DNA from: a virus
IMG/VR virus record: IMGVR_UViG_3300029892_000002
DNA length: 64,000 nt
Direction: 5' to 3' (one strand)
Part shown: one piece after another, positions 24,601 through 31,866 of the stretch
Layout of the letters: each line of letters starts with the position of its first letter
How positions within the stretch are numbered: the stretch's first letter is position 1
The notes under the pieces: generated by a model
Told to the model about the DNA's origin: nothing
Seen by the model: the letters and a program-made list of their open reading frames with translations, nothing else
Database searches by the model: none
Translations under genes and position numbers: made by a program

Positions 24601-24645
24601 TTTTGAGGTGAAGCGAATCCTTTGGTATCCATTAAGGAGTTGGTC

Positions 24646-27600
24646 ATGGCACTAAGAAAAGGCCCTGTTGGTCCTAAGGACAAGCAGAAGACTAAGGCTG
24701 AAGATTTTGACTTCGATTTTGATTTCGACGATGAGCTTTCTGGTATTACGGATAGTGGACTTGGTATTGAGAAAGAAGTCGAATCGAAGAAAACTAAGAG
24801 CGGTAAGCGTGAAGCTGTAACCAATGCTTTTAAAGGAGCTATCTCTGGAGCCAAAGATGCTGTATTGTCAGAGAAGAATCTTCGTACATTGGTTACGACA
24901 GCTCTTCCAGATGAATACGAAGTCATACTTGGCAAAGGCGAGGAGATAGCTACACAAGTAGCTGGAACCTATCAAACCGCTGTCAGAGAATTCAAACCAG
25001 TAGCTGGTAAGTTTGCTAAAGTCCTGGATAAGATGTCTACACAGGAAAACGCAACCTCTAAGAAAGCTGCTGCTAAAATCAGATCTATGTTTGGTGTTGA
25101 GGATCAATCAACTCGTGTGTCTGAAGCTCAGATGCAAGAGCAAGCCATCGCTACATCGATGGGTGAGATCTTCAATAAGACCATCGAAGCACAATCAGAG
25201 CTTCAAGCCAAACAACAAGCTAGGCAAGATACAAAGGCTGATCTAGATCGTCAAGTAGAACATAAGAGATTTACATCTCAATATGCGTCTATAGGTAATA
25301 TAGAAAGAAACACTGGTATCTTAGCTCAATACCAAACACAAATCACTAGCGGGTATCAGAAGAAATCTCTGGAACTCCAGTACCGTAGCTATTTTGCTAT
25401 GGCTGAGCTTCTGCAGAAATCCAGAGAACATTTTGAAACTACCAAAGTTAGCATGGAAGCTTTGGTTAAGAATACAGCTCTTCCTGAGTTTGTGAAGATG
25501 CAGAACTCCGAACGTTTCAAAGAAATGGGTCGTAATAAACTCATCGGGGCTTTGCAAGATAAGATGTTTGGTGCTGATAGCACATTAGGAAGAGGTTTCG
25601 CTGCCATCAATAAGGTTGTCAAAGCCAAGAGTCAAGAACTTGCTTCTGTGTTTATGCAGAGTCTTGAGATGGCTGAAAGCGCTAATGAAGCTATGAGCTC
25701 TATGGCTGGTAGCGGTTTTGATATGGGTCCTGAAGGTAGTAAAGAATACATGGCTGCCAGTATAGCAGCAAACATGGCTCTTCAGAATCCAGCTAATAGA
25801 GCAGCTGCTAAAGCAGGTAAATGGCTTCGTGGTAAAGTCACCAAGATCCCTGGTGTTACTGATTTTGGTAAGAAGTACTATGGATATGCCAAGAATACCC
25901 AAGGGATGGCTTATGACTGGAGTAAATCTCTAGAAGAAGGTGAACCCAGTTTCTTTAAAGACATCCTCAAATCAACACTAGATGAGTTTGCTAAAGGCAA
26001 ACATGGGGTGTCTATAGAGACACTACAGGGAACGAACAATCTTACCAACGTCGATGTTGGTTTTGATAGGCGTTTCTACACTAGTGTCACAGATGTCATT
26101 CCTGGTTACCTAGCTAGAATCTTAGTACAGACAGAAAAAACAGCTAAAGGCATAGACGGTATGTCTGGTGGTAAAGCATCCATGTCACCAGAACTACAAA
26201 GATATGACTATAAGACTGGCAAGTTCGTTAGAGAATCTGCCATGAAAGAGTCTATTAAGTCCAGGATGTCTGAAAAAGCTAAAAGCACTAACACAACATC
26301 CATCATGAATGATTTCATGAAGAAAGTTGGCCTGGATAAAAGTCTTAAACCAGATGAACAAAAAGCTTTCCAAAATGCTGTTGTTTCCTGGTTATCCATG
26401 GGCAATCCACTAACACTGAAGGCAGCTACTTCTTCTGAATTCATTAGACTTATTCCTACAGAACAGCGCAGGAAAGTTAGGCGTGTATTAGAGACTTTAA
26501 CTGAAAATGGATCTAGACCTAGTAAAGGCGATCCTAATGTCAGTATCAAATCAGCTTTTGATATAGCTGGATCAGACCTACGTAACAGTTTGCCTAACAT
26601 ACATGCTGAAGCTCAGTCTGTTTATAATGAAGGCCATGGCGATATCTTAGAGTCCTTAGGTATCAGTCAGAAGTCTGGTGATACAGGTATAGCTAGTATC
26701 AAACACCAGTCATATGCTGATTTGGTTACAAGTAAAGCTCCAGAAGAATCCAAACCAGAGAAACCATCGGGACTATCTCTGGTAGATGATACAGCTACAT
26801 CTGACGTACATAGCAAGAAAGGTATCAAACCATATATTGCTAAATCAGATATACATGCAAAAACCGGTATCAAACCAACAAGACAAGGTGAGATACTAGA
26901 TAAGCTCACAGGTATTAAGAACTATACTTGGAGTTATAAACATGGTGAAGGTAGTCCTGGTACTAAGTTTGGTCCCATGGCTCAAGATCTTCATGGTAAG
27001 TTTGGTAGCTATGCTGCACCAGGTGGTACTAAGGTAGACTTAGTGTCCATGAATGGCATCAACATGCAGGCTATCTCTGATCTCAATACCAAAGTAGACA
27101 CCATGGTTGGTACTGGTAGAACCACCACCACACTGCTTGATGTCATGCAAGCCGTAGAAGCCAACACTCTACGCACAGCAGAAGCTGTTGAAGGACTTGA
27201 TAAGAAGTTCTTCATGGGTATGAATTTCGATATGTCTGGAGCTAAAGACCAAATGGGTGTATTTGCTCAAATGGTTGGTGAAAAAGCTCAAGGTGTATAT
27301 GAATCAACCAAAGGCAAAGCTACATCAGCTTGGGATAACTTCACATCCCAGATGTCTGGAGCTAAAGATGCTCTTACCATGGGACCACGTCAACCAGGTA
27401 AAGAAACATTTGGACAGAAGATCTTAAACTTCGCACAATCACCATCACAGTCTTTAGGTGGTGCTGTTTCTAGAGTCCTAGCTGGAGTACTTGGGGCTGG
27501 TGTTAGAGCAGCAGAGAAGACTATAGATGGGGCTAAATCTGCTTATACCTTCACATCTGAAAAAGGTATCAAACCAGCTTATGAAGGTATCAAGAAGTAT

Positions 27601-30600
27601 CTTGGTGATAACAAAGACAAGATCAATGAATCCGCCAAGAACCTGATAGGAGGTGCTTGGAATTTAGCCAGTCAGATCTACAATGGTATGTTTGATCTGG
27701 TTAAAAACAAAATACCAGCTGGTCTTAGGAACATCTGGGAAAGAGCCAAAGGCTACGGTAAGATGGCAGCCGAGCTCATAGATCAACCAATTGACATTTA
27801 CGTAGTAGGTGAAGCAGAGCCTCGTATCAGAGCGCAGATGATGCGCATGAACGGCTACGTTGATGTAAATACTGGTAAGGTTATAACCAGACCAGGTATG
27901 ATCAACGGACCTGTAGCTACTACGGATGGTAAGGTAGTGTTATCTTCCGATGATATCATGAAAGGTATCGTCGATATGGACGGTAATGAAATCACCACCA
28001 TCCGTGCTCGTGTTATGAAATTCATACGCGATAAAGCTAAGGAAGGTATAGATCGTGCCAAGACAGCATTTAAGTTCATTACTGGAGCTGCCAAAGGTAT
28101 TGGTGGTAAGATTACCGGTAATCTCAAAGGAGTCACTGGTGGTATAGGCGGTGATTGTTGTAGGGATATTTACAATGTCTTGTTAGACATCCGCGACCTA
28201 ACGGCTGCTGGTGTTAATAAATCTAGATTACCAAAAGGTTTCAAATTCAGGTCTTCTGATAAACCTCAAGAAAAAACTGATACTACTGTCTCTGGTCAAG
28301 AAGAGAGCAAAGCTGGTATGGTAGATAAAGCTAAGGAAGATGTAAAATCCAAAGCTGAGGAATATAAAGAGAAGCTAAAAGAACGCAAAGGTGGTTGGTT
28401 AGAACGCCTGGGTTCTTTTAAAGATAAAGCCAAAACAACCCTAGCTAATATAGGCGATCAGATCGAACCTCGTTATCGTGGTACGAACGTCATAGATAAG
28501 CTTGTTGGTTTTGGTGGTATGGCTAAGGATTTCCTTGTTAGTAAATTTAACAAAGGGAAGATTGAAGATGGGGAAACCCCAGAGCAGCAATTAGCCAATA
28601 AGTATTTTGGTAAGAAGAAAGCCAAAGAAAAAACAGGACTTCTGGAAAAGGTTAAAGCCAAGATACCAGAACCTATTAAACAAACAACTGAGGGTGTTAA
28701 GAGACGCGTTGGTAATTGGACCGATCGTCTCAAAGCCAAAGAGGATGCTTCAAAAGAACGTCGTGAAAAGATAGCCGAAAGCCTCAAACCAAAAGAGGTT
28801 GAAGCCCGTTATCGTGGTAAAAATGTTATAGACACGATGATGGAAAAAGCAGCTGCTGCTAAAGATGCCATAATGAGTTTCTTCGACATGGGAGATACTC
28901 TTGGTGATTTACCTGGTGGTAAGAAAGGTAAAAAAGTAGGTAAGGGTGCTAAGGCAGCAGGTAAAGCTGGCACTATGTCTCGTATAGGTGCTGGTCTTGC
29001 TAGAGGAGCGGCTGCTGTTGGTAGTGTAGCCGTTGGTGCTGGTAAAGGACTTCTCACTGTTGGTAGGTTTGCACTACCATTGATGGGCATGATGGGTTCT
29101 GGTTTAGCTTCTGCTGCAGGCACTATAGGTAGCGGTTTACTTACTGCAGCTACATCCCCATTACTACCTATCATAGCTGGAGCAGTAGCTGTTGGTGCTG
29201 TAGGCTATGGCCTCTATAAAGGCTACAAGTACCTCACTAGAAACAATATAATGCCTATTGATAAGATTCGTATGAATCAGTACGGTCTTAATGATAGTCA
29301 AAGCGATCATTATCATTATATCCTTGGACTTGAGCAAATGGTCCAAGAAAAAGCAGAACGCATCAACGGTGGAAATGTAACCGTAGATGGTAGTAAGCTT
29401 AAATGGGAAGATGTGATCGAGATGTTCAATATCAAATTGAACTCAGATCAAGGTAAAGAACAAGCCAGTAAGTTGCAAGAATGGTTCTACGGTAGGTTTA
29501 CTCCTGTCTATGTTCAGAACCGTTCAGCACTCTATGAAGCTGATCCTAAACTTAGGGTTGGTGAATATGGAAAGCTTTCCGGTCAGTCTCTTAAGACCTA
29601 TTTAGCTAAATGTGATGCCCCTAGTGCTGTTTATAGTGCTAAGACATCACCATTCCCAGATATAGAAGAGCTTACTAGTACTAAAGAAGCTGCTCAGAAG
29701 TTGATTAAAGAGTTTACTGATAAAGCAGGTAAGGATGAAAAAGATCCTAAAAAAGCTGCTGCAGCTAAACCAGACCAAGGTAAGACTCAGACTGAAAAGA
29801 GCCTAAAAGAAGCTAGTAAGGCTCTCGAAAAACAAACATCTGCCAGTGCTGCAGGAGCATATGTTGGTGGTAAAGCTATCAGTGACGCTACCAAAGCTGC
29901 TAAAGATGGTGGTCCTGATAGTGAAGCTAAACCAAACCAATCAGTATATTCTACTGATAATAGCATATCTCCAACAAAACCAAAGGTCGATATGGGACCT
30001 CTTGGTAGTGGTGATAGAGCAGATGGGTACATGGTTCTTCAGAAAGGCGTTAGTCTAGATAATCTTAACCCTACCTTGCTGGAAAGACTTAGAGGCATGG
30101 TTCAGGAATATGGAGAAAAGACTGGTAAATCTGTAGTAATCACAGATGGTTTTAGATCTAGAGAACAACAGGAAAGCTTATACAAAGCATATCCTGATAA
30201 GGCAGCTAAACCAGGAACATCGTTGCATGAGTTTGGTTTAGCTGTTGATATAGATCCGAAAGCTATGAACGAGATGGATGAGCTCGGTCTCATGCGCAAA
30301 TATGGTTTCACTAGACCGGTTGGTGGTGAACCATGGCATGCTGAGGCAGCAGGTATCCAATCAAACATCGCTAGAGCTAAGCAAGACAGTTTGTTCGCTG
30401 AACAAATGGTCCAAGCTTCTGCTTATAGAGGTGGTGGTGGATATGGAACTATGTCTGGAGCAGTATTAGCCAGACGTAATCCAAAACTAGCATATGAACT
30501 ATTCATGTCTGAAGATGGCGTAACTGTAAAACAGGAAGAACCAAATACTCCTACTATAGTTGTAGCTGCTAACGATACTCCATCAATAAAGCAGGCATCA

Positions 30601-31866
30601 CTTAAGTCCAGTGAGAAAACACCAGCTCCAGATATGGAAAAGAAACCAGCTGGTGGGTTCATGAAAGCTAGTTACACTAGGGATAGACCGGCAGTTAGTG
30701 ACCAGGTTGCTGCTAACGATGCTAGTTCAACTGGACCTGATGAATCTATAGCTAGTCTTAAACCAGGTGGCGATGTTGGTCTTAAGCCTGGTGGTGGTGT
30801 TGGATTAAAACCACCTAAAGACAGTAGCGTAGATTCCATTAAGTCTATGATCACTGATGTTGCTAATAAAACTGGTGTTGATGCAGGAACTATGCAAACG
30901 TTTGCTGCTATAGAGTCCGGCTTTAAGCCTAACGCTAAAGCATCCACATCTAGTGCAGGTGGTCTCTACCAGTTCATAGATTCAACTTGGAAGTCCATGT
31001 TGAGTAAATATGGGCCTAAGTATGGGCTATCTCCCGATACAAGTAAGTTCGACCCATTAGCTAATTCTCTGATGGGTGCTGAATATATTAAGCAAAATAA
31101 AAAAGCCATGGAGTCGGTTGTTCCTAATCCAGGACCAGACGCACTTTATGCTGCTCACTTCTTAGGACCTGGTGGTGCTAAAACACTCTATAAATCAGAT
31201 CCTAACCAATTAGCTACAAAAACACTACCAGCTGCTGCTAAAGCTAATAAAGCCATTTTCTATGCTGATAATGGACAGAGACCAAAAACCAATGGTGAAG
31301 TTATTTCTACCATTGAAAGTAAGGTATCTACTAAAGCTAAGCAGTTTGGTATTAACATGCCTACTAGTGGTAAGGTTGAAGATAGATTTGATTCAGCTGT
31401 TGAATCTGCTGGTCCTATCGAAACAACTAAACCACCAGAAACTAAACCAGCACAAACAACTGCCGTACCGTCATCTCCTGCAGATGTTCGCAAGGCAACA
31501 AAAACTCCTCCGACCAATGTTGGTACTACACAAACACCAGCACCATTCGGAGTACCAGCTCCATCCACCATACGCACAGCACCAACTATCCAAACTAAGG
31601 ATATGTCTGCTGCAAATACCCCACTGGCATCGTCAAGTGGTGTTATTGATATATTGACTAAGTCTTACGATGTACAAAGCCAGATGCTTTCTGCTTTGAC
31701 TACCATCGCTAAGACCGTCGGTGGTCTTCCTAATTCTATACCTAAACAAGCAGATGAAAAACCATCTGGTCCTAAGGAAGGGATTAAGAGAATACCGAAT
31801 ATGAATAGGGGAAATGGCGAGAAAATGCCAGATATGCCTATCGATCTTCGTCGCAGATCGGCCTAA
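24646..31866 (+). CDS. Giant virion-associated peptidoglycan hydrolase / tape-measure-like protein (phiKZ gp181-like)
   Basis: About 2400 aa. C-terminal lytic transglycosylase (AAIESGF..SAGGLYQF..TW..AAHFLGPGGA). M15 zinc peptidase (GFRS..Q..SLHEFGLAVD..EPWH). Internal S74-like domain. ATG 24646 after AAGGAG. Confidence 0.88.
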   Translation: MALRKGPVGPKDKQKTKAEDFDFDFDFDDELSGITDSGLGIEKEVESKKTKSGKREAVTNAFKGAISGAKDAVLSEKNLRTLVTTALPDEYEVILGKGEEIATQVAGTYQTAVREFKPVAGKFAKVLDKMSTQENATSKKAAAKIRSMFGVEDQSTRVSEAQMQEQAIATSMGEIFNKTIEAQSELQAKQQARQDTKADLDRQVEHKRFTSQYASIGNIERNTGILAQYQTQITSGYQKKSLELQYRSYFAMAELLQKSREHFETTKVSMEALVKNTALPEFVKMQNSERFKEMGRNKLIGALQDKMFGADSTLGRGFAAINKVVKAKSQELASVFMQSLEMAESANEAMSSMAGSGFDMGPEGSKEYMAASIAANMALQNPANRAAAKAGKWLRGKVTKIPGVTDFGKKYYGYAKNTQGMAYDWSKSLEEGEPSFFKDILKSTLDEFAKGKHGVSIETLQGTNNLTNVDVGFDRRFYTSVTDVIPGYLARILVQTEKTAKGIDGMSGGKASMSPELQRYDYKTGKFVRESAMKESIKSRMSEKAKSTNTTSIMNDFMKKVGLDKSLKPDEQKAFQNAVVSWLSMGNPLTLKAATSSEFIRLIPTEQRRKVRRVLETLTENGSRPSKGDPNVSIKSAFDIAGSDLRNSLPNIHAEAQSVYNEGHGDILESLGISQKSGDTGIASIKHQSYADLVTSKAPEESKPEKPSGLSLVDDTATSDVHSKKGIKPYIAKSDIHAKTGIKPTRQGEILDKLTGIKNYTWSYKHGEGSPGTKFGPMAQDLHGKFGSYAAPGGTKVDLVSMNGINMQAISDLNTKVDTMVGTGRTTTTLLDVMQAVEANTLRTAEAVEGLDKKFFMGMNFDMSGAKDQMGVFAQMVGEKAQGVYESTKGKATSAWDNFTSQMSGAKDALTMGPRQPGKETFGQKILNFAQSPSQSLGGAVSRVLAGVLGAGVRAAEKTIDGAKSAYTFTSEKGIKPAYEGIKKYLGDNKDKINESAKNLIGGAWNLASQIYNGMFDLVKNKIPAGLRNIWERAKGYGKMAAELIDQPIDIYVVGEAEPRIRAQMMRMNGYVDVNTGKVITRPGMINGPVATTDGKVVLSSDDIMKGIVDMDGNEITTIRARVMKFIRDKAKEGIDRAKTAFKFITGAAKGIGGKITGNLKGVTGGIGGDCCRDIYNVLLDIRDLTAAGVNKSRLPKGFKFRSSDKPQEKTDTTVSGQEESKAGMVDKAKEDVKSKAEEYKEKLKERKGGWLERLGSFKDKAKTTLANIGDQIEPRYRGTNVIDKLVGFGGMAKDFLVSKFNKGKIEDGETPEQQLANKYFGKKKAKEKTGLLEKVKAKIPEPIKQTTEGVKRRVGNWTDRLKAKEDASKERREKIAESLKPKEVEARYRGKNVIDTMMEKAAAAKDAIMSFFDMGDTLGDLPGGKKGKKVGKGAKAAGKAGTMSRIGAGLARGAAAVGSVAVGAGKGLLTVGRFALPLMGMMGSGLASAAGTIGSGLLTAATSPLLPIIAGAVAVGAVGYGLYKGYKYLTRNNIMPIDKIRMNQYGLNDSQSDHYHYILGLEQMVQEKAERINGGNVTVDGSKLKWEDVIEMFNIKLNSDQGKEQASKLQEWFYGRFTPVYVQNRSALYEADPKLRVGEYGKLSGQSLKTYLAKCDAPSAVYSAKTSPFPDIEELTSTKEAAQKLIKEFTDKAGKDEKDPKKAAAAKPDQGKTQTEKSLKEASKALEKQTSASAAGAYVGGKAISDATKAAKDGGPDSEAKPNQSVYSTDNSISPTKPKVDMGPLGSGDRADGYMVLQKGVSLDNLNPTLLERLRGMVQEYGEKTGKSVVITDGFRSREQQESLYKAYPDKAAKPGTSLHEFGLAVDIDPKAMNEMDELGLMRKYGFTRPVGGEPWHAEAAGIQSNIARAKQDSLFAEQMVQASAYRGGGGYGTMSGAVLARRNPKLAYELFMSEDGVTVKQEEPNTPTIVVAANDTPSIKQASLKSSEKTPAPDMEKKPAGGFMKASYTRDRPAVSDQVAANDASSTGPDESIASLKPGGDVGLKPGGGVGLKPPKDSSVDSIKSMITDVANKTGVDAGTMQTFAAIESGFKPNAKASTSSAGGLYQFIDSTWKSMLSKYGPKYGLSPDTSKFDPLANSLMGAEYIKQNKKAMESVVPNPGPDALYAAHFLGPGGAKTLYKSDPNQLATKTLPAAAKANKAIFYADNGQRPKTNGEVISTIESKVSTKAKQFGINMPTSGKVEDRFDSAVESAGPIETTKPPETKPAQTTAVPSSPADVRKATKTPPTNVGTTQTPAPFGVPAPSTIRTAPTIQTKDMSAANTPLASSSGVIDILTKSYDVQSQMLSALTTIAKTVGGLPNSIPKQADEKPSGPKEGIKRIPNMNRGNGEKMPDMPIDLRRRSA

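Follow-up and report, generated by a model that had tools for sequence, protein, structure and literature searches.

In the 64,000-nucleotide stretch of viral DNA from IMG/VR virus record IMGVR_UViG_3300029892_000002 (the window), a gp181-like tail lysin of 2406 residues, P0002, carries a Peptidase_S74 domain in its interior. The identity of this region as an S74 domain, also called intramolecular chaperone auto-processing (ICA), is near certain. Residues 734 to about 856 are probably functional in auto-processing, such that a trimer forms, the K733–S734 bond is cut and two pieces result. The gene and the elements on which this reading depends are as follows.

24646 to 31866, plus strand: gp181-like virion tail lysin gene (P0002), 2406 amino acids (aa), a single open frame.
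26845 to 27213, plus strand: Peptidase_S74 / intramolecular chaperone auto-processing domain (aa 734 to about 856), assigned from PF13884, profiles and models.
26746 to 26844, plus strand: linker (aa 701-733), predicted from low model confidence to be disordered, directly upstream of S734 and holding an extra motif.
26800 to 26817, plus strand: first S-D-x3-K motif, SDVHSK (S719-K724), a clade-specific extra copy.
26845 to 26862, plus strand: second S-D-x3-K motif, SDIHAK (S734, D735, K739), family-invariant, with the predicted scissile bond K733–S734.

The sequence-only reading of this DNA had described an S74-like domain with two tandem, intact S-D-x3-K motifs at 26800-27110. The peptide that it cited was recovered by translating 26650-27250 in the frame 24646-31866 of the plus strand, and both motifs are present, with S719 encoded from nucleotide 26800 and S734 from nucleotide 26845. 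The domain was correctly located, but it runs on to about residue 856 (nucleotide 27213), and its invariant serine is S734. Similarly, the motif proposed for cutting exists, but it is S734 and not S719 that aligns with the family-invariant serine, and the bond likely to be cut is K733–S734. The unusual internal position also stands, as 733 residues precede the domain and about 1550 follow it.

When the whole protein was compared with Pfam, PF13884 was matched by residues 734-782 with an expectation value (E) of 3.9e-7 and 30.7 bits, against a gathering score of 22. The excised 171-residue piece gave E 2.4e-8 and 34.6 bits, and the homologues P0005 and P0006 scored 41.6 and 36.3 bits. The layout of the domain is a beta core with W762, Y764 and G776-PMAQ-780, followed by a helical hairpin. 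A profile built from an alignment of 19 homologues matched a tail fibre at its C-terminal end (8jov, E 9.8e-6), the ICA domain of MYRF (7dc3, E 0.0055) and the released chaperone of the GA-1 neck appendage (3gud, E 0.019), so that the S74-like character first read from the motifs is borne out by profile matches to solved domains. In the profile alignments, the S734 motif is aligned with the first residue, a serine, of the released 3gud chain, while K739, W762 and Y764 pair with K592, Y615 and Y617 of MYRF and S734 with its position 587 (Ala in the 7dc3 chain). P0002 is classed with Peptidase_S74 because every membership test that could be run gave the family feature, namely the profile match, the Ser/Lys pair, the aromatic residues with G-x-x-A-Q, the fold and the homotrimer, the last two as predictions.

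Two AlphaFold2 models were built, one of residues 700-870 and one of residues 430-870, the latter on 59 sequences. The S74 core has a predicted local distance difference test (pLDDT) score of 84-93 over both models (84-91 for residues about 750-820 in the 700-870 model). The longer model falls into three parts: an all-alpha part at about 520-700 (pLDDT 90-98), a low-confidence linker at 701-733 and the S74 core. When the 700-870 model was submitted to Foldseek, the first nine rows consisted solely of 7dc3, 3gud and 3gw6, with a best E of 0.04; the probability for 7dc3 was 0.99-1.0, and the longer model gave 7dc3 again at 1.0. Comparison of the 700-870 model by VIA-align gave 3gw6 at Z 7.2 (root mean square deviation 3.7, 88 residues aligned), 7dc3 at Z 7.0 (3.0, 89 aligned) and 3gud at Z 6.1 (3.4, 74 aligned). 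The next row was unrelated, at Z 2.9, and the chaperone matches begin at model residue 34-35, which is S734. Meaningful structural matches were thus limited to chaperone domains, in keeping with the chaperone likeness originally proposed. The fold assignment is regarded as a moderately strong prediction.

The domain and its residues are highly conserved among large relatives of P0002. A word-indexed search yielded 20 large homologues, all with the motif, located at residues 666-796. In the alignment of 19 homologues, which are 26-63% identical to P0002, S734, D735, K739, W762, Y764, P777, A779 and Q780 are invariant, as are G787, A791, P792 and G794. When 1.84 billion cluster representatives were searched exhaustively with a profile, 135 proteins were recovered at E <=1e-30. 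Among the best 150 matches, 129 proteins have at least 1500 residues and carry the domain at about 650-850, and the other 21 are short and represent ordinary C-terminal copies or fragments. Pooling of the profile matches with the earlier homologues gave 137 representatives of at least 1500 aa, in which the median domain start is residue 657 and a median of 1602 residues follow the domain. After alignment of this set with hmmalign, Ser734 and Asp735 are each retained in 136 of the 137 proteins and Lys739 in all of them; W762 and Y764 are each found in 136, and each residue of G776-P-M-A-Q780 in at least 134. Conservation of at least 95% was seen at each of W762, Y764, G776-P-M-A-Q780, G787, A791-P792, G794, D798 and N803-G804, in proteins that share only about 25% identity elsewhere. 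The near-invariant Ser-Lys dyad fits retained catalysis, and from these sequence patterns cleavage by the S74 domain of P0002 is probable.

When 240 large gp181-like proteins were scored with the domain profile, the scores were bimodal, 165 at 40 bits or more and 75 without a meaningful score. The internal domain is therefore present in at least 165 distinct sequences, of which about 130 are 50%-identity cluster representatives, and in databases many of these proteins already bear the Pfam S74 label through automatic annotation. An artefact, either a chance Pfam match or the fusion of fibre and lysin genes by assembly or sequencing error, could be suspected for a normally C-terminal domain in a window from metagenomic assemblies, but it is rejected as having almost no probability, since the score exceeds the curated threshold, an identical protein occurs on a second contig, and the same uninterrupted architecture with invariant Ser/Asp/Lys recurs at the same place (median start 657) in more than 130 large homologues from distinct clusters and many independent assemblies.

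Three copies of residues 700-870 were predicted as a homotrimer, with an interaction prediction score from aligned errors (ipSAE) of 0.79 versus 0.02 for the best of 3 controls; among proteins of solved structure, 20 of 30 one-chain pairs and 1 of 23 single chains reach this mark. At least 77% of contacts are common to the trimer runs, the partner pLDDT is at least 71, and the predicted interface spans residues 729-855. The trimeric state that the sequence-only reading had offered as one use of the domain is thus reproduced by modelling, and trimerisation through the S74 domain is likely on these predictions. The gp181 of phiKZ has been described as a putative trimer and needle-like puncturing device (PMC5380687), and the predicted trimer of P0002 agrees with this description.

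The high confidence of the predicted trimer would equally suit an S74 domain that is kept as a permanent trimerisation knot without cutting, the protein staying whole in the virion. The existence of gp181-like proteins without the domain is in line with such a role, because cleavage would then be unneeded for the basic function, and MYRF trimerisation, chiefly driven by a C-terminal coiled coil (PMC8326128), has also been counted in its favour. Nevertheless, a pure oligomerisation module would not require the serine, aspartate, lysine and aromatic pair, which are catalytic in solved family members and near-absolute in the 137 representatives despite their low identity elsewhere. A knot without cleavage is therefore considered improbable.

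The preferred reading, a trimer that cuts itself, can be described as a series of proposed steps. Three chains would associate through the beta core and helical hairpin of the S74 domain. Each linker would thread through the core of a neighbour, bringing Ser734 beside Lys739 and W762/Y764, and formation of the trimer would activate Ser734/Lys739 for cutting of the K733–S734 bond. The predicted products are an N-terminal piece (aa 1-733, calculated mass 80.4 kDa), which would be mostly the conserved region aa 17-700, and a C-terminal piece (aa 734-2406, calculated mass 178.5 kDa). The latter would retain the S74 domain as a trimeric N-terminal cap, together with a hydrophobic segment and the VanY and SLT domains. 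Cutting in this way would leave a nicked trimeric tail protein with its chains in register, and its halves would be able to part at infection.

This proposal resembles what has been established for MYRF, which is cut between P586 and S587, only as a trimer and independently of its upstream stalk (PMC8326128). The catalytic serine with a lysine five residues further on is found both in endoNF (S911/K916) and in MYRF (S587/K592); S587A and K592A abolish the cleavage of MYRF, and Y615/Y617 line the cutting hole, where tyrosine mutation impairs cleavage (PMC8326128). In both MYRF and P0002 the domain is internal and a hydrophobic segment follows later in the protein, the Ser and Lys of MYRF, five residues apart, and its two aromatic residues align with S734, K739, W762 and Y764, and 7dc3 is the best Foldseek match for both P0002 models. 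Cleavage of MYRF is trimer-dependent and the domain stays on the C-terminal, membrane-bound piece, and the same is proposed for P0002. The differences are also clear. MYRF belongs to the transcription factors of eukaryotes, and its upstream part comprises an NDT80-type DNA-binding domain and a beta-helical stalk of short length, neither of which was seen in P0002; sequence identity is about 16%, and P0002 is a virion wall-degrading protein. No Pfam match to an NDT80-type DNA-binding domain was found anywhere in P0002, which is therefore placed outside the MYRF family, the likeness lying in domain use only.

Alternatively, the domain could act as a classical folding chaperone for an adjacent trimeric beta-structure, upstream or, unusually, downstream, and be freed at one or both motifs, so that the mature fragment loses it. 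Endosialidase, T5 pb1 and the GA-1 appendage use their copies of the domain in this way (Schwarzer 2007 via PMC7824862; PMC8326128), and the presence of motifs in tandem might point to more than a single cut. The chaperones of tail spikes and fibres (K1F endosialidase 3GW6, GA-1 3GUD, T5 pb1, 8JOV) share with P0002 the PF13884 match, the motif and the predicted fold and trimer, and they too belong to phage tail proteins. In contrast, these chaperones occupy the final 100-150 residues of their proteins, serve to fold a triple beta-helix upstream of them and are shed once cleaved, whereas in P0002 about 1550 residues follow the domain, with no cleavage motif C-terminal of it to release them. P0002 therefore departs from the tail-spike definition of a C-terminal intramolecular chaperone domain (CIMCD), that is, a C-terminal, released domain. 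Upstream of S734, the 33 linker residues are predicted to be disordered (pLDDT 42-53 in the two models, 42-49 in the 430-870 model) and are poorly conserved in alignments, and the domain before them is all-alpha. No triple beta-helix was seen upstream of S74 in the monomer models, which could miss structure formed only in the trimer. A discarded chaperone thus has a low probability. Because the upstream part is predicted to be a disordered linker and not a triple beta-helix, a MYRF-like role, in which the domain would set the register of the trimer, then cut and uncouple the halves, appears more likely by analogy.

The first motif requires separate consideration. Among the first 19 homologues, the S719 motif is found only in P0002-P0005. 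The DNA of the two motif copies differs by several substitutions, some of them silent, which indicates that the duplication is old and not a recent slip. An extra S-D-x3-K-x2-[IVLF] motif within 80 residues upstream occurs in 20 of 163 S74-bearing proteins, versus 0.7 expected from the rest of the same proteins, and this state requires at least 15 changes on the tree described below. Such copies are carried by P0031, P0034, P0038, P0040, P0046, P0056 and P0064, and also by P0068, P0089, P0098, P0106, P0107, P0115 and P0118. The spacers between the extra and the invariant motif comprise 10-57 residues (75 in one protein) and are often very basic, rich in Lys/Arg. In P0002 the S719 motif sits in the low-confidence linker, outside the predicted trimer interface. 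It may serve as a second cut, provide an alternative register or be a remnant of partial duplication; cutting at both sites, if it occurred, would release a short basic peptide. In a bolder and unlikely version of the mechanism, the 80 kDa N-terminal trimer would be ejected as a pilot or effector, the C-terminal trimer at the tail tip would enter the membrane and digest the wall, a second cut, at the recurrent extra motif, would excise a short and often very basic peptide, and the whole would be a viral prototype of the arrangement later adopted by eukaryotes in MYRF.

The distribution of the domain is uneven among gp181-like proteins. The rest of the protein was rightly called gp181-like, but the S74 domain is not part of that likeness, as phiKZ gp181 and the cultured relatives searched are without it. 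The comparison of orthologs accordingly gave a divided answer, the domain being present in the 137 large representatives, while phiKZ gp181, ORF042 of Ralstonia phage RSF1 and the HPP-Temi homologue have neither a Pfam S74 match nor the motif near residue 700. Three divergent S74 queries were compared by tblastn with 50,697 phage records and gave no match in a jumbo phage or in any record longer than 63 kb; the matches were restricted to phages of about 41-63 kb. In two of these matching records that were inspected (about 60 kb), the domain lies C-terminally in a protein about 400 aa long. The nearest copies in cultured phages are accordingly of the C-terminal type.

A FastTree phylogeny of the N-terminal region (235 rows) requires at least 13 changes in the presence or absence of S74; since this tree has no root and S74 carriers are over-represented in the sample, gain and loss look alike on it. 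In one half of the tree, 137 of 145 proteins are S74-positive, with the negatives nested within, and phiKZ, RSF1 and HPP-Temi belong to a wholly S74-negative clade of 24. The internal S74 domain is the mark of a large, uncultured branch, in which it is absent here and there. Of the relatives that lack it, the closest is P0167 (2570 aa, from a contig of 152,690 bases), sister to the clade of the window. It is homologous to P0002 as far as the residue before S734 and unrelated beyond, and the borders of the module are therefore sharp; this sequence pattern suggests clean loss or replacement of the module.

Several observations weigh against a self-cutting trimer in P0002. With the monomer models, Foldseek gave no match at E <=0.001, the chaperone domains leading the list at E 0.04-0.25, and a Z of about 7 is only middling. 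As trimers of the S74 chaperone family have been solved, the trimer score may stem from the memory of the model and perhaps reflects likeness instead of independent evidence. Cleavage of endosialidase requires an Arg of the upstream beta-helix stalk (PMC8326128), and no stalk that could supply such a residue was seen upstream in P0002. None of the S74-bearing gp181-like homologues comes from a cultured phage among those searched. Since many gp181-like proteins, including that of phiKZ, are without the domain, it is dispensable for their basic role. Finally, the favoured model leaves the S719 motif unexplained.

P0002 is, by its sequence and gene context, a gp181-type tail lysin of a phiKZ-like jumbo phage, an assignment that follows from its PHROGs match, the layout of the genes and the BLASTP comparison with phiKZ gp181. 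Residues 17-904 match phrog_3201 (E 1e-197), the family that contains phiKZ gp181. By BLASTP, P0002 and phiKZ gp181 are collinear across residues 51-690; the N-terminal region gave E 6e-21, and the SLT part is 40% identical (E 4e-36). The order of genes is as in phiKZ, with two divergent genes for virion RNA polymerase beta subunits upstream and a gp182-like gene downstream, and the neighbour genes match phrog_2986, phrog_3148 and phrog_3181. Thus phiKZ gp181 (NP_803747), a virion-associated lytic transglycosylase, shares with P0002 the N-terminal region, SLT, the neighbourhood, a similar size and the putative trimer. It differs in having no S74, no S-D-x3-K near residue 700 and no VanY, and its counterpart of residues 700-860 is unrelated.

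For the gene itself, an alternative TTG start is possible at 24622. No near-identity DNA match to 24646-31866 was found among the 50,697 phage records, and the protein was found only in metagenome assemblies, with an identical copy on a second contig. Three Pfam domains of P0002 exceed the curated cut-offs: Peptidase_S74 at 734-782, VanY at 1807-1876 and SLT at 2069-2156. The remaining features of the protein are listed below.

24694 to 26745, plus strand: conserved N-terminal region (aa 17-700), common to gp181 of cultured phiKZ-like phages by tblastn.
26203 to 26745, plus strand: all-alpha domain (aa 520-700) of the AlphaFold2 model, directly before the linker.
29125 to 29223, plus strand: hydrophobic peak (aa 1494-1526) of a Gly/Ala-rich stretch, containing the sole windows with a Kyte-Doolittle mean above 1.4 over 19 residues.
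30064 to 30345, plus strand: VanY/M15-type peptidase domain (PF02557, E 1.3e-6, 28.7 bits against a cut-off of 25).
30850 to 31113, plus strand: SLT lytic transglycosylase domain (PF01464, E 1.3e-9), with Glu 2090 in an E-S motif.

Homologues of the N-terminal region were detected by tblastn in 172 phage records, with identity below 30% in all. The all-alpha domain had no Foldseek match in the PDB, which is not proof of a new fold. It contains the near-invariant G663 and L668 of a family consensus A-G-Y-G-D-I-L-E stretch.

Downstream of the S74 domain, about 600 mixed residues are followed by the Gly/Ala-rich hydrophobic stretch and then by both lysin domains. Within the downstream half, a D-C-C motif at aa 1170 (28153-28161) is followed by a conserved L-x-I-R-D stretch, which is also seen in distant homologues (P0018 and P0099). 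An R-Y-R-G-x-N-V-I-D motif is present in two copies separated by about 110 residues, at aa 1276 (28471-28497) and aa 1388 (28807-28833). The Gly/Ala-rich stretch (aa about 1437-1526; 28954-29223) resembles those of tape-measure proteins, and it gave a weak, holin-like Pfam match below threshold (E 0.12). The segment aa 1494-1526 is a candidate for the membrane-inserting part of the C-terminal product, judging from its hydrophobicity. A tape-measure role for P0002, suggested by its great length, the hydrophobic Gly/Ala-rich stretch and the lysin domains, is only a lead. In the VanY/M15 domain, H1861, D1868 and H1898 are taken to be the expected zinc ligands.

The end of P0002 carries two wall-degrading modules, VanY and SLT. 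Gp181-like proteins freely exchange this end, as seen in the C-terminal parts of P0173, P0174, P0190, P0211, P0245 and others. The modules found there, single or paired, are SLT, VanY, a GH19 chitinase-like domain (PF00182), glucosaminidase (PF01832), M23 (PF01551), PF18013 and PF21277.

Domains of the S74 type are classically C-terminal, throw-away chaperones of tail spikes and fibres. To our knowledge, the sole studied case of internal use is eukaryotic MYRF, whose S74-type domain is thought to be derived from phages. Maturation cleavages of tail lysins and tape-measure proteins include those of T4 gp5 (into gp5* and gp5C), lambda gpH (into H*) and T5 pb2. The likeness to the process proposed here is that a large trimeric tail protein with a wall-degrading domain is nicked in assembly and the pieces act separately at infection; we know of none of these three cuts that is made by an S74 domain. 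The literature found does not describe gp181-like or tape-measure-like proteins with an S74 domain in an internal position. A comparative review of jumbo phages deals with S74 only for the tail fibres of another phage group, Marseilleviruses and MYRF (PMC7824862). The gp181 of phage G, which also came up as a literature match, is an unrelated protein.

These findings imply that phages themselves use an internal S74 arrangement, in the largest tail protein of phiKZ-like jumbo phages and with a near-invariant dyad. It is solid that this architecture is widespread and built from a promiscuous, well-understood module. It also follows that phiKZ gp181 is not typical of the family to which it belongs. 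The hypothesis offered is that a 260 kDa tail lysin would acquire its register and be split with no need for the head protease, and the domain may in addition represent a self-trimerising, self-cutting module for protein engineering.

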